DNA from: a phage
Direction: 5' to 3' (one strand)
Length of the DNA stretch: 64,000 bases
Assembly (NCBI GenBank): GCA_025830695.1
Contig: GCA_025830695.1_4111.1
Shown here: positions 1,843 through 45,622 of the stretch, in pieces
Layout: each line of letters opens with the position of its first letter
Position numbering within the stretch: the first letter of the stretch is position 1
Made by a program: the position numbers and the translations under genes
The notes under the pieces: model-generated
The model's input: only the letters and a program-made list of their open reading frames with translations
Told to the model about the DNA's origin: nothing
Database searches by the model: none

Positions 1843-2905
<1,063 letters not shown>

Positions 2906-2918
2906 AATATAGACTTAA

Positions 2919-5082
<2,164 letters not shown>

Positions 5083-13767: not shown

Positions 13768-14721
13768 ATGACCACACTATGGACTGAAAAATATCGCCCA
13801 CAATCAATGGAAGATTATGTATCAAAAAACGATGCACTACGCCAGAAAATGGAAGAATGGATTAAGACTGGTGACATTCCACATATTGGGTTTTTTGGCC
13901 CAGCAGGAACTGGTAAAACATCTGCGATCAAAGTACTAATTAATGGACTAGTTCAAAATGGACACCTTGATCCAAGTGATGTGACCACGCTTAACATGTC
14001 CGATGAAGGCATTGATGCTGTTCGTGACAAAATCGATGCCGCAGCAAAGCTATCATGTTTTGGTAGATATCGTATTTTTGTTCTTGAAGAAATGGAGCAG
14101 ATGAACCACAAAGCACAAGGTAGTTTGAAACGTGTAATGGAAGACTATCATGAAAATGCTCGCTTTATTTTAACAAGTAACGAACCACATAAAATTCAAA
14201 AACCTATCATTTCTCGTGTTCAAGTTATTACAATCGAAAAGCATGATATGGAACAATTCATGACTCGAATTTATAATATTCTTCTAGCAGAAGGTGTTGA
14301 TTTGAGTAGTGATGATAGTGTTGAACAAGTTCAAAAGTACATCAATGCTTCCTATCCTGATTTCCGTAAAACACTAAACGTATTGCAAAGTTCAGTTGTT
14401 GATGGTAAGCTAGTAAAACTTGAAGATAGTATTGAAAATTCAGCAGGGTATCGTACTGCAATTGTTGAAGCATTAAAGGCAGGCAACATTCGCCAAATGC
14501 GTGAACAAATTGTACAAAATATCCCTGATGATGAGATGGATGCATTTTTCTCTTACTTGTACAGAAATGCTGAAATGTTCAGTACTGATGAAATCACACT
14601 GATGAAGATTAAAGTTAAAATTCGTGATGCAGTTGTTAAGCAAGCAACAGTATCAGACCGTGAAATGAATCTTAGTGCTTTACTGTGTGAGATTGACCTA
14701 ATTTGTTCGGGGAACATGTAA
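13768..14721 (+). CDS. 44: sliding-clamp loader subunit (gp44/RFC-like AAA+)
   Basis: RFC box LWTEKYRP, Walker A GPAGTGKTS, SRV sensor; start at ATG 13768 after AAGGAAA. Confidence 0.85.
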   Translation: MTTLWTEKYRPQSMEDYVSKNDALRQKMEEWIKTGDIPHIGFFGPAGTGKTSAIKVLINGLVQNGHLDPSDVTTLNMSDEGIDAVRDKIDAAAKLSCFGRYRIFVLEEMEQMNHKAQGSLKRVMEDYHENARFILTSNEPHKIQKPIISRVQVITIEKHDMEQFMTRIYNILLAEGVDLSSDDSVEQVQKYINASYPDFRKTLNVLQSSVVDGKLVKLEDSIENSAGYRTAIVEALKAGNIRQMREQIVQNIPDDEMDAFFSYLYRNAEMFSTDEITLMKIKVKIRDAVVKQATVSDREMNLSALLCEIDLICSGNM

Positions 14722-27201: not shown

Positions 27202-27597
27202 ATGAAGAACAATATTGGAACTTCAATAATTAAACCACTTTCTTATTACCTTGAAAAATTTAGAAGCACAAATGGTAATAAATTTAATAATATATTTCAG
27301 TTCTCTCATAAAGAATATATTACAATTGATCATTTTTCAAAGAAACTAATGTATGTAAATGATAATAGTCATATTATTAAATTATCATTCGATATTGAGT
27401 TAGATAAATTAACATTTACGGAATACATTAATCAAAAAACTTCTTTTTTATGTCAATACAATAGGAAAGTATATAGTAATATTTCTATGTATCTAAATGA
27501 TGAATATCACTTTCAACAATCTACAATAGAAGAAGTATTGTTCAGTACTGAAGAATTAAAAGAACTATATTACTGGTATAATTATTTCACATCTTGA
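27202..27597 (+). CDS. EExFFQxS-motif family protein (member 2)
   Basis: C-terminal NDEYHFQQSTIEE. Confidence 0.6.
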   Translation: MKNNIGTSIIKPLSYYLEKFRSTNGNKFNNIFQFSHKEYITIDHFSKKLMYVNDNSHIIKLSFDIELDKLTFTEYINQKTSFLCQYNRKVYSNISMYLNDEYHFQQSTIEEVLFSTEELKELYYWYNYFTS

Positions 27598-40108: not shown

Positions 40109-40444
<336 letters not shown>

Positions 40445-40445
40445 A

Positions 40446-40628
40446 ATGACACACGAAGAATGGATGTCCAAACAGCATAAAGAACATGACTGCTTTGGGA
40501 ATGGCATTCGTCAGGTACATTATGATATATTAAGAGATGAAAATCTTTTCAGGTCATATGTTTTGGATACCAGAAAACCCTGGTTTATATGCGAACTGGC
40601 ATTTAGAAAGTCAAATAATCAAAACTAA
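40446..40628 (+). CDS. MTHEEW-family small protein (member 3)
   Basis: MTHEEWMSKQHKEHDCFGNGIRQVHYDILRD... Confidence 0.55.
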   Translation: MTHEEWMSKQHKEHDCFGNGIRQVHYDILRDENLFRSYVLDTRKPWFICELAFRKSNNQN

Positions 40629-40644
40629 ACAAGGAATACAAAAA

Positions 40645-40863
40645 ATGGAAACAACTTTATTTGAAGTTATTCAATCATTAAAACCTGAAGATGAGGTTCA
40701 AGTACTACTACATGGTTATCGTGTAAAAGGTACTGTGGTTTTAGTCAATGATACAACATTGGTTATTACAGAAACAAACCCATATGATAGTAATCAACTT
40801 GCCAATATCCATATCGATATCACTGGAATTATTGGTGTCGGTGTATCTAAAACACTTGCATAA
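40645..40863 (+). CDS. hypothetical protein
   Basis: Trimmed to ATG after AAGGAA. Confidence 0.5.
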   Translation: METTLFEVIQSLKPEDEVQVLLHGYRVKGTVVLVNDTTLVITETNPYDSNQLANIHIDITGIIGVGVSKTLA

Positions 40864-40916
40864 ATCATTAATTCATTATATAATGATTATCACTGGTTCT
40901 AGATGAGGATAATATT

Positions 40917-41189
40917 ATGCATTTTGAAAAATTCAACGTAAATCGTAACACACGCATTGAAGTTCTTTATGAAACTCAAGACACCATTAGTATTCGTACA
41001 AGTAGTGGGGATGTATATCATGACTGTACGATTGGCTGGGAACAGGGAAGGACGCGTAGTGCAGTATTTGATAATTATCGCTTTTATCAAGGAGACACTA
41101 CGATTTGGCCTGAATACGTAGAAGATATTGCGTTTGAAGATGAACATAAAGATGAATTTATCAAATTTAATCCTCAAACTGAATCATAA
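40917..41189 (+). CDS. hypothetical protein
   Basis: 90-aa ORF, RBS GAGGA. Confidence 0.5.
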   Translation: MHFEKFNVNRNTRIEVLYETQDTISIRTSSGDVYHDCTIGWEQGRTRSAVFDNYRFYQGDTTIWPEYVEDIAFEDEHKDEFIKFNPQTES

Positions 41190-41193
41190 ATAA

Positions 41194-41323
<130 letters not shown>

Positions 41324-41326
41324 AAT

Positions 41327-41427
<101 letters not shown>

Positions 41428-41429
41428 CA

Positions 41430-41590
<161 letters not shown>

Positions 41591-41594
<4 letters not shown>

Positions 41595-41751
41595 CACATG
41601 AAGAATGGATGAATGACATTAATTTTAGATATTCGGGTATCGGTAAATGGCTAAAGTATCATTGGGAATTCATTTCAGAGCCACATCTGTATGATAAACT
41701 TATCAACGATCCAGCATATGAAATGTACTTAATTGAACTACTGGTACGATT

Positions 41752-41755
<4 letters not shown>
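41591..41755 (+). CDS. MTHEEW-family small protein (member 5)
   Basis: 54 aa, about 80 percent DNA identity to member 4; ATGA overlap. Confidence 0.5.
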
Positions 41756-41917
<162 letters not shown>

Positions 41918-41925
41918 AAAAAAAG

Positions 41926-42335
<410 letters not shown>

Positions 42336-42339
<4 letters not shown>

Positions 42340-42371
42340 CTAAATAATTCAGTACTGAGGATATTAATATG
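42336..42371 (+). promoter_or_regulatory. degenerate copy of the promoter cassette
   Basis: TTGACTAAATAATTCAGTACTGA then a poor -10. Confidence 0.3.
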
Positions 42372-42396
42372 TTTAAAGATGAACGTCCAGATTTGT

Positions 42397-42444
<48 letters not shown>

Positions 42445-42449
42445 ATCAG

Positions 42450-42782
42450 ACGTATATGGTGTAAGTTACGTCGATGCAATCCAGAACAAGATCTCTGGTA
42501 CTCTAGGAAGTGGTGAATGTTAACCTAGACGGGTTTGATAATTGGACGATAGGCAATTATTACTTGACTAGCAGGTTTAAACTAGAGGTGACTATCCTTC
42601 ACCAAACTGGAAAACCGGATGGACTTTTATTTAAAAGGGTAAGGCGTGGAAATATGTTTACAGAAGTTGCTTTTAGTAGCCTGTACGCCCCACGTCAAGG
42701 TAGCCGAAAGGCAAGTTAAGACGGGTGGTTATAAAGCTGAATTAACAGCGGCGTTTAAAAGCGTCACCATCCATTTTTTTTT
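42450..42782 (+). ncRNA. candidate structured non-coding RNA
   Basis: About 330 nt without a credible ORF, visibly GC-richer than flanks, promoter upstream and T9 run at 3' end. Confidence 0.3.
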
Positions 42783-42798
42783 AATTAAAGTTGGTGAT

Positions 42799-43608
<810 letters not shown>

Positions 43609-43632
43609 ACGAAATTACAATAGGAAATTAAA

Positions 43633-43818
43633 ATGCAACTTTTAATTCTTTCAATATTGTATATTATTATAATGGTTCCGATATCAATACGTTTAATTAC
43701 ACTTGAACGATTTTTATCGAAACATGGAAATAGATCTATGATCTTAGTACCAATCGGGCTTATATTGTTTGGTATTTTTGCATTTATAATGGGAATTAAC
43801 GCTACATTCATTTCATAG
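43633..43818 (+). CDS. small membrane protein
   Basis: 61 aa, two hydrophobic helices. Confidence 0.45.
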   Translation: MQLLILSILYIIIMVPISIRLITLERFLSKHGNRSMILVPIGLILFGIFAFIMGINATFIS

Positions 43819-43827
43819 GAAACAAAT

Positions 43828-44085
<258 letters not shown>

Positions 44086-44093
44086 GAATTTAA

Positions 44094-44495
44094 ATGAAAA
44101 AGAATGACTTGATCAAAATGCTTCAAGAAATTGACGGCAATCCAGAGATTGTTATTTGGAATGGATACGTCGATGATTATATGAACATCGAAAAAGGCTT
44201 GACTAAAATCACTCTAGTCAAAGAAACCGAACAGTTTCTTCAGGGTGCATTAGAGCACGAATGGTGTGAACGTAACAATACATTCGACATTCCAGAAGAC
44301 CAACGAACCAAGATTGCAGAACGTGCTAAAGAACTGCATAAGAAACGTGAATACGATTTCCAGAACCCATATGTCACTGAAGACGAATTCAATCGCTGGT
44401 ACGGTAAAAAGAAATTGATAAAGTATGTCCTTTCACCTAAACTACGTGGTAAGACTTCACTTGGTGTATTCAACGCCGCAGACTTAAACTACTAA
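44094..44495 (+). CDS. hypothetical protein
   Basis: 133-aa ORF. Confidence 0.5.
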   Translation: MKKNDLIKMLQEIDGNPEIVIWNGYVDDYMNIEKGLTKITLVKETEQFLQGALEHEWCERNNTFDIPEDQRTKIAERAKELHKKREYDFQNPYVTEDEFNRWYGKKKLIKYVLSPKLRGKTSLGVFNAADLNY

Positions 44496-44507
44496 GAGAG
44501 TATTTAA

Positions 44508-44981
<474 letters not shown>

Positions 44982-45016
44982 CAGGGGAGGTTGTGATTCC
45001 CGATTCAGTAGCTTAT

Positions 45017-45139
<123 letters not shown>

Positions 45140-45140
45140 T

Positions 45141-45275
<135 letters not shown>

Positions 45276-45277
45276 TA

Positions 45278-45334
<57 letters not shown>

Positions 45335-45419
45335 AGTAAGAGTAAAAATGAAAGTAAGTAAAAAAACTACCAAGCAGCTTGAAGAACTTTGTAGTGCTGC
45401 ACCTATGCCGACTCTTGGC

Positions 45420-45520
<101 letters not shown>

Positions 45521-45532
45521 TATCTTACTTCT

Positions 45533-45622
<90 letters not shown>

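Follow-up and report, generated by a model that had tools for sequence, protein, structure and literature searches.

Sequence comparison points to two adjacent structured RNA genes in the tRNA cluster of a Rak2-like jumbo coliphage

The species 1 and 2 RNAs of phage T4 were the first stable RNAs without known function to be recognised in phage transfer RNA (tRNA) clusters. To our knowledge, no function is known for any RNA of such clusters, be it T4 species 1 and 2, ROOL or GOLLD. Here we analyse a 64,000-nucleotide (nt) stretch of phage DNA (GenBank assembly GCA_025830695.1, contig GCA_025830695.1_4111.1; hereafter 'the window') and within it a segment of the tRNA cluster at 42436-42782. Judged by its sequence and its relatives, this segment is two adjacent, independent non-coding RNA (ncRNA) genes rather than a single RNA. 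We call them RNA A and RNA B, and we hold it almost certain that both are structured RNA genes. ROOL and GOLLD, Rfam families from the Breaker laboratory, are phage and prophage RNAs that often occur near tRNA islands, contain multiple pseudoknots, form nanocages as seen by cryo-EM and have no known protein partner or function (PMC12286853); they show how elaborate the architecture of a tRNA-island RNA can be. RNA sequencing of PA5oct, a Rak2-related jumbo phage, revealed ncRNAs free of open reading frames (ORFs), two of which each account for 1-5% of phage reads; their primary-sequence similarity is to isolate MIJ3 only, and no structures were described for them (PMC7318152).

By blastn, the region is 97-99% identical to vB_Eco_slurp01, JP4, 121Q and PBECO4 (genus Asteriusvirus). 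On this sequence evidence, the window is a Rak2-like jumbo coliphage of the 121Q/PBECO4/slurp01 group. ARAGORN places all six tRNAs of the window on the plus strand, within 40131-45612. The GC content of 42436-42773 is 0.42, compared with a window mean of 0.333 (standard deviation 0.030, 338-nt windows) and with 0.30 and 0.29 in the flanking genes; merely 0.02% of 338-nt windows reach this value. The original prediction, made from this sequence before any comparison, had described a segment inside the tRNA cluster that is richer in GC than its neighbours and ends in a T9 run, and each of these features is present. It had also taken the segment for one structured RNA of about 330 nt. Covariation on the plus strand in both halves, a promoter and a terminator support structured RNA; the single RNA gives way to two modules, which were told apart by blastn of the segment against 50,697 phage records.

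The model of RNA A is based on 19 distinct aligned sequences and comprises seven helices (H1-H7) and three pseudoknots (PK1-PK3) derived from inspection and RNAalifold (Table 1). Across the 53 proposed pairs, 91.5% of 986 pair cells are paired, versus 26-41% in controls whose partners were slid by 1-3 columns, and 26 pairs have changed on both sides, versus 6-8 in those controls. None of 500 shuffles attains the observed pairing values. All three pseudoknots carry compensatory changes. PK3 occurs as CCAC/GUGG, CCUC/GAGG, AGCAC/GUGCU and GCAC/GUGC in different clades. PK1, in which the 5-nt H5 loop pairs with a tetranucleotide five bases downstream and the third loop is A-rich, is found as CUAG/CUAG, CUGG/CCAG, CAAG/CUUG and CAGG/CUUG, with 100% of cells paired. 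PK2, with 98.6% of its cells paired, takes the forms AUCC/GGAU, GUCC/GGAC, GCCC/GGGC, ACCC/GGGU and UCCC/GGGA.

The 3' core of RNA A is 70-74% identical to that of the most distant members, compared with 36-47% for the 5' half. Despite this divergence, individual folding recovers H1-H3 and the matching tail-loop duplex in every clade; H1-H3 are understated in the distant clades because MAFFT and the covariance model alike rely on sequence when aligning the divergent 5' halves. Twenty-three of the 87 unpaired columns are invariant, most of them within the 3' core. G-U combinations outnumber A-C combinations among the pair cells (61 vs 19), which identifies the plus strand as the functional RNA strand.

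RNA B has a structured body at 42639-42772, about 135 nt plus the U tail. It consists of a long interrupted hairpin (B1) with inner stems ACAG/CUGU and GUUGC/GUAGC, a short hairpin, and a Y-shaped 3' part (B2) in which a closing stem of 7 base pairs (bp) surrounds two 4-bp hairpins to form a three-way junction, followed by A and U9. Among six sequences, 92.4% of cells are paired, versus 31-50% after sliding, and 10 pairs show compensatory changes, versus 1-4 in the slid controls. The minimum free energy (MFE) structure, with a z-score of -2.9, agrees with the comparative model. Covariation against related phages, which had been named as a check on the original prediction, is thus present in both RNAs.

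B2 has the GC-rich stem directly before a U run that marks an intrinsic (Rho-independent) terminator. A simple terminator scan missed it because the stem closes a three-way junction, which is atypical. Three copies of the Y-shaped terminator are found in the RaK2 tRNA region, each before a U run and one directly after tRNA-Ser, and their closing stem carries compensatory changes. The Y-shaped 3' part of RNA B is a terminator module of Rak2-like phages.

In the RaK2 locus (L002), a B-like paralogue, built of a long and a GAAA-type hairpin and a Y-shaped terminator, occupies 2834-3000, between tRNA-Gly and RNA A, and the third copy of the terminator is at 4591-4648, behind tRNA-Ser. Scanned as a pattern, B1 gave 121Q and RaK2 only; a few Kuravirus podophages also have a B1-like hairpin. 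One of these, vB-EcoP-XT32 (L008), has a GC-rich region of about 650 nt (1227-1875) with strong hairpins and no credible plus-strand ORF, in which the B1-like hairpin lies at 1570-1647. This region has no Rfam match, and its record annotates there a minus-strand ORF of 56 amino acids (aa) alone. It may be a large ncRNA region.

Table 1. Features of the RNA A/RNA B locus, in window coordinates
Feature	Position	Strand	Description
Weaker promoter of the same family	42336-42365	+	TTGACT, 18-nt spacer with TTCAGTACTGA, GATATT
Strong sigma-70-type promoter	42406-42434	+	-35 TTGACT 42406-42411; extended -10 TGATATAAT 42426-42434 (TG-n-TATAAT)
RNA A, ~190 nt	42436-42625	+	19-sequence alignment; covariance model R1 = 219 bits
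RNA A helices H1-H3	H1 42446-42474; H2 42481-42498; H3 42502-42529	+	Comparative model
RNA A helices H4-H7	H4 42537-42561; H5 42562-42576; H6 42587-42603; H7 42607-42618	+	Comparative model
PK3	42440-42443 with 42510-42513	+	CCAC with GUGG; RNA A 5' tail and H3 loop
PK1	42568-42571 with 42582-42585	+	H5 loop CUAG with CUAG; H-type, A-rich linker UUAAA
PK2	42594-42597 with 42621-42624	+	H6 loop with 3' tail GGAC; H7 within connecting loop
Conserved 3' core of RNA A	42530-42625	+	Junction ACGGGUUU, H4 (loop GACGAUA), PK1, H6, H7, PK2
69-aa ORF	42510-42719	+	GTG start, crosses the A/B junction
RNA B part 1 (B1)	42639-42719	+	Long interrupted hairpin; closing stem 42643-42649 with 42690-42696 (7 bp)
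RNA B hairpin GCC-GAAA-GGC	42703-42712	+	3' of the long hairpin
RNA B part 2 (B2), Y-shaped terminator	42723-42782	+	Stem GGGUGGU 42723-42729 with ACCAUCC 42766-42772
T9 run (U9 in RNA)	42774-42782	+	Closes the segment
Downstream protein gene	42799-43176	+	ATG at 42799, 17 nt past U9

The strong promoter scores 11/12 against the consensus, has the TG extension, and contains the palindrome TTCAGTACTGA in its 17-nt spacer. The full 30-mer occurs a single time in the window (0 expected by chance), and the predicted transcription start is at about 42441-42442. The promoter announced by the original prediction is therefore present, about 10 nt to the left of the 42416-42444 it had given. Promoters before tRNA-Ser genes (41195-41222 and 43167-43195) share the spacer motif TTCAGTACTG with the RNA A promoter. 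Because both belong to a common promoter family, RNA A is likely expressed like the tRNAs of this phage. The weaker upstream promoter could be a source of transcripts with a complete RNA A 5' end.

Several further observations concern these promoters. The two tandem promoters that precede RNA A are separated by a stretch with a 9-codon mini-ORF (MFKDERPDL, 42370-42399). Across the window, the palindrome TTCAGTACTGAA (core TCAGTACTGA) has 40 matches at up to one mismatch, compared with 1.9 expected (for example 42348-42358, 42418-42428, 44964-44979, 45085-45100, 27541-27552 and 14578-14588). It occurs within the -35/-10 spacer of tRNA-region promoters and also as free-standing perfect palindromes of 14-16 nt, and from its sequence and placement it looks like an operator of some phage or host regulator of early/tRNA promoters. 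Single tRNA genes have sigma-70-like promoters of their own (41195-41233, 43167-43202), with 7-11 nt from the end of the -10 element to the mature 5' end; in one example, the -10 element ends at 43195 and tRNA-Ser begins at 43202. Some tRNAs may thus have almost no 5' leader. A 12/12 consensus promoter at 45219-45246 (TTGACA, 16-nt spacer, TATAAT) precedes two overlapping 37-codon ORFs, in the stretch 45247-45461, and tRNA-Thr. Either the ORF start or the promoter is doubtful there, because no gap separates the first ATG from the -10 hexamer.

Known RNA classes do not account for the segment. With the 4227 covariance models of Rfam 15 at gathering thresholds, tRNAs alone pass in the window. 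A permissive search of 42300-42900 gave best scores of 12-14 bits at E = 4-10, compared with thresholds of 33-70, and Rfam searches of the Aeromonas and Kuravirus relatives were blank too. The Rfam scan proposed with the original prediction thus found nothing, and the evidence comes instead from comparison with other phages. ARAGORN reports no tRNA from 41322 to 43202 and no transfer-messenger RNA (tmRNA) in the window, and on this result we rejected a tmRNA or an odd tRNA as the identity of RNA A. Searches for hammerhead, twister, pistol, hatchet, hepatitis delta virus-like and glmS ribozymes gave no match at E <= 10. RNA A also lacks the constant place before one class of gene that would mark a riboswitch or cis-acting leader: downstream of it we find a protein gene in the window, tRNA-Ser in EJP2, tRNA-Asp, -Glu, -Ser or -Thr elsewhere, and a promoter in RaK2 and in a metagenome contig (L017).

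The segment contains no credible ORF, as had been claimed for it. The only ORFs internal to 42436-42773 are one of 27 aa and a GTG-started one of 69 aa, and a 176-aa ORF is a mere upstream extension of the gene with its ATG at 42799. PHROG and Pfam searches with the 69-aa ORF gave no match. Across the 19 RNA A homologues no reading frame is conserved, nearly all frames of nearly all sequences contain stops, and the variable columns of RNA A show no third-codon-position bias. GenBank records that match the locus in our blastn tables are blank there or carry a 'hypothetical protein'. We found no account of RNA A or B in Rfam 15 or in full-text searches of the literature by topic and by exact sequence string (the supplementary catalogue of 10,006 csRNAs in PMC10690425 was outside this search). 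RNA A is an undescribed RNA family of a known kind, the RNAs of phage tRNA islands.

We identified RNA A in five unrelated lineages of large lytic phages, the Rak2-like group included. Copies in T4-like Bragavirus phages of Morganella, Proteus and Shigella (vB_Mm5, PM2, Pm5461, SdyM_006) are 85-93% identical to the window; those in T5-like Novosibvirus Proteus phages are 84.5% identical, and that in the Stephanstirmvirinae Klebsiella phage KP13-16 is 72% identical. In Aeromonas T4-like phages (65, avDM6, ZPAH1, AP1, CC2, P19, AS-zj), similarity is confined to the core. Similarity found by blastn in T4-like and T5-like phages (84-93%) starts and stops at the borders of RNA A. As read from these sequences, RNA A alone has been passed horizontally from tRNA cluster to tRNA cluster among five phage lineages. 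All-against-all blastp of the ORFs of 16 loci revealed no protein gene common to the flanks of RNA A across lineages, only homing endonucleases and spurious ORFs that overlap tRNAs. Homing endonuclease genes lie near RNA A in several carriers: SdyM006 has a segD-like gene, and RaK2, P19 and ZPAH1 have HNH genes. This proximity suggests a route by which the cassette may be moved.

RNA A lies on the tRNA strand in all carriers. It is located between tRNA-Gly and tRNA-Asp in SdyM006 and PM2, between tRNA-Leu and tRNA-Ser in Proteus phage 1 and KP13-16, and between tRNA-Pro and tRNA-Thr in the Aeromonas phages, most of which carry it in an inter-tRNA slot. Where a tRNA adjoins upstream, RNA A usually begins 0-3 nt past its CCA, and in T4-like and T5-like carriers it ends 7-15 nt ahead of the next tRNA. 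In the window phage, RaK2 and L017, it is joined to no tRNA and has its own promoter. The whole gap between tRNA-Pro and tRNA-Thr (~275 nt) is conserved in Aeromonas T4-like phages (L007/L009/L031). These carriers have two more conserved hairpins, about 90 nt after RNA A, which are absent from the enterobacterial versions.

Natural variants separate the two RNAs. RNA B accompanies RNA A in RaK2 and K64-1, about 50 nt apart, and the gap holds a separate promoter for RNA B (in RaK2, TTGAAC-17-TGATATAAT at L002 3206-3234). In JNE01, a strong promoter of the window type runs straight into RNA B, without RNA A. EJP2 has the same type of promoter followed by RNA A and, 13 nt on, tRNA-Ser, without RNA B. 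In phAPEC6, the promoter and the first 37 nt of RNA A are followed by the homologous downstream gene, and both RNAs are lost. The order in the L017 contig is promoter, RNA A, next promoter. The JNE01, EJP2 and phAPEC6 variants therefore indicate that A and B are separable and dispensable, and RNA A, which can be lost within Asteriusvirus, is an accessory gene.

A host origin of RNA A was rejected, since neither 5,426 complete E. coli genomes nor 72,556 PLSDB plasmids gave a blastn match at word size 11. We scanned more widely with three degenerate core patterns on IMG/VR and with one scan each of the JGI/ENA metagenomes and GTDB. These scans, together with 36 extra candidate loci evaluated under model R1, returned the same phage groups only, other matches being due to chance. 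The RNA A family is narrow and belongs to lytic phages of Enterobacterales and Aeromonas.

We also considered RNA A as an intron or insert in tRNA-Leu, an idea prompted by a fragment resembling a tRNA-Leu 3' half after RNA A in KP13-16, and dropped it because RNA A sits between intact tRNAs elsewhere. The fragment (L006, 2632-2680), directly after RNA A, is of the Felix-O1-like/Vequintavirinae type and comprises the variable arm, the T arm and the acceptor 3' strand with CCA; a 5' half to match it is absent. Upstream, KP13-16 has a tRNA-Leu(TAG) of only 78 nt, which lacks the long variable arm.

Among described RNAs, T4 rnaC (species 1) and rnaD (species 2) resemble A and B in being non-coding and in lying within a phage tRNA cluster on the tRNA strand. 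The T4 RNAs directly abut tRNA genes and are annotated as misc_RNA in NC_000866. Siting of the rnaC/rnaD type fits all carriers of RNA A by position and strand, and release from tRNA precursors may be expected from it. RNA A differs from rnaC and rnaD in being longer and in having three pseudoknots, and the window unit has its own promoter and terminator. T4 rnaC contains a tRNA-like T-arm (GGGTTCGAATCCC), which A and B lack. Searches of A and B against the T4 tRNA region gave no nhmmer match at E <= 10, and the RNA A model R1 had no match there either. We rejected homology to rnaC and rnaD on these negative results, with the T-arm difference judged by eye. The likeness to T4 stable RNAs raised by the original prediction is thus one of kind, both sets being found in tRNA clusters, with no detectable homology.

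RNA A shares with ROOL and GOLLD a phage-borne location near tRNA islands and a multi-pseudoknot fold. ROOL (~580 nt) and GOLLD (>800 nt) are three to four times larger than RNA A, whose 190 nt fall below the >500 nt of that size class. They are found mainly in Gram-positive and other hosts, whereas RNA A is carried by lytic phages of Enterobacterales and Aeromonas, and RNA A has no Rfam match to either. From their published description, the PA5oct ncRNAs can be set beside A and B as ORF-free regions of Rak2-related phages. The PA5oct transcripts therefore provide a precedent for abundant ncRNAs in this phage group.

These observations lead us to a proposed mode of action. Host sigma-70 RNA polymerase would read both genes on the plus strand from the extended -10 promoter, a member of the early/tRNA-type family, and transcription would halt at the Y-shaped hairpin and U9. 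RNA A would fold as seven helices bound by three pseudoknots, with its 5' tail in the H3 loop and its 3' tail in the H6 loop, and this compact form would resist exonucleases and 5'-end-dependent RNase E. In carriers with RNA A in a tRNA slot, its position suggests that it would be freed by RNase E/RNase P processing of tRNAs. RNA B would be a second small RNA, its 3' part doubling as the terminator. Flavivirus-type exoribonuclease-resistant RNAs (xrRNAs) have an RNA end tucked into a pseudoknot, a fold that resists processive exonucleases. The predicted structure of RNA A is similar in that both termini lie in pseudoknots (PK3 and PK2); it has no sequence or topological homology to xrRNAs, and bacterial nucleases differ.

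RNA A would be an abundant, stable and trans-acting RNA. Its stability is suggested by the sequestration of both termini in pseudoknots, and action in trans by its own promoter and varying neighbours. Because five unrelated backbones share RNA A and no common neighbour gene, its partner is probably a host component or a small ligand, and because many unpaired bases are invariant, it likely works via a specific three-dimensional surface. We propose that the invariant 3' core may bind a conserved host macromolecule, RNA A serving as a decoy or sponge for a protein of RNA/tRNA metabolism or of defence; a small ligand is the less likely partner, and action by base-pairing or as a cis leader is improbable. 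We put forward this trans-acting binder/decoy mechanism tentatively, as plausible but short of an even chance. The best explanation as a whole, two structured RNA genes together with the trans-acting mechanism, is a compromise that we favour slightly. That RNA A founds a new class, a compact triple-pseudoknotted phage RNA with an activity of its own (a counter-defence decoy for a nuclease that targets tRNA or for some other host RNA-binding protein, a sponge for a small signalling molecule, or a new ribozyme), seems to us unlikely. If the proposal is true, RNA A spreads as a self-contained 190-nt cassette between tRNA islands because it is useful in many hosts.

Several points weigh against this reading. 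The MFE of RNA A as a single sequence is no better than that of shuffled sequences (z = -1.0), and the MFE fold is different and nested; we set it aside in favour of the covariation because this z-score is not significant. The predicted start at 42441-42442 falls inside the PK3 5' strand (42440-42443) and would leave 2-3 bp unless the weaker promoter contributes. The window's own copy of RNA A has one A-C mismatch in PK2, H7 is lost in Aeromonas members of the AP1/CC2 type, and the alignment of H2 is faulty in distant clades. Since only about five clades are represented, the pair cells far outnumber the independent compensatory events. The decoy or sponge mechanism is argued from anatomy and genomic context.

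Of the rival explanations, the one to which we give most weight, though we consider it unlikely, is that RNA A (and B) is cis-acting punctuation of tRNA units, which would guide RNase E/RNase P, block 3' exonucleases or terminate transcription and have no later role. In T4-like and T5-like phages, RNA A adjoins tRNA 3' ends and leaves 7-15 nt to the 5' end of the next tRNA; its 5' edge bears a conserved AAUU similar to an RNase E site (RNase E prefers RN↓WUU), and B2 is clearly a terminator that is reused behind tRNAs in RaK2. The tRNA-free copies with their own promoter in the window phage, RaK2 and L017 do not fit such a role; spacers of 2-10 nt suffice at most tRNA junctions of the same clusters, and 23 invariant unpaired bases and three pseudoknots would be superfluous for a spacer. 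The same invariant nucleotides and compact multi-pseudoknot fold could be those of a ribozyme, self-cleaving at its own 5' border or acting on tRNA ends. That border coincides with the upstream tRNA 3' end in several lineages, and several small ribozyme classes are common in phages. Catalysis is nevertheless quite improbable in our view: no Rfam ribozyme matches even at E <= 10, a 2',3'-cyclic phosphate at a tRNA CCA end would prevent charging, and the 5' end in Rak2-like phages arises by transcription initiation, which leaves cleavage unneeded.

The order of promoter, structured RNA, terminator and, 17 nt later, a gene is also that of a ligand-sensing leader (riboswitch or attenuator), in which A and/or B would govern read-through of U9 into the gene at 42799-43176. 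The pseudoknotted conserved core is aptamer-like, and in phAPEC6 the promoter drives the homologous gene directly. Elsewhere, RNA A precedes tRNAs rather than this gene (tRNA-Ser in EJP2), no alternative antiterminator pairing is evident, RNA B has its own promoter in RaK2, and no Rfam riboswitch matches; a leader is accordingly very doubtful, marginally more so than a ribozyme. Homing endonuclease genes near RNA A in several carriers, and the clear mobility of the element, would suit conservation at the DNA level, as an endonuclease target, a cassette border or a replication/recombination site. The compensatory changes keep pairing, the excess of G-U (61) over A-C (19) fits a plus-strand RNA and not DNA hairpins, and the element is always on the tRNA strand, downstream of promoters, which makes this explanation remote. 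Least credible, and in effect discounted, is a small protein. Many records have 'hypothetical protein' features that overlap this stretch, and the 69-aa GTG ORF at 42510-42719 is open in the window, but no frame is open across the homologues and no PHROG or Pfam family matches, the ORF crosses an A/B junction that relatives lack or split by an extra promoter, and many records annotate nothing at the locus.

Returning to RNA A as a possible trans-acting RNA, its family is small and sharply bounded, and it occurs in cultivable, tractable phages of E. coli, Klebsiella, Proteus and Aeromonas. Natural knock-outs exist among close relatives (phAPEC6 without A and B, EJP2 without B, JNE01 without A), and the question of its role is therefore directly testable. 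Together, a multi-pseudoknot fold, many invariant unpaired bases and horizontal transfer without a partner gene are a combination by which ribozymes, aptamers and protein-binding RNAs have repeatedly stood out. On the practical side, the GenBank records matched by blastn miss the locus or label it as a hypothetical protein.

Elsewhere in the tRNA region, 41430-41916 holds three tandem paralogous ORFs of 54 aa, each beginning MTHEEWM, with overlapping stop and start codons. The three match phrog_10970 (function unknown) and are also present in triplicate in phAPEC6 and JNE01.

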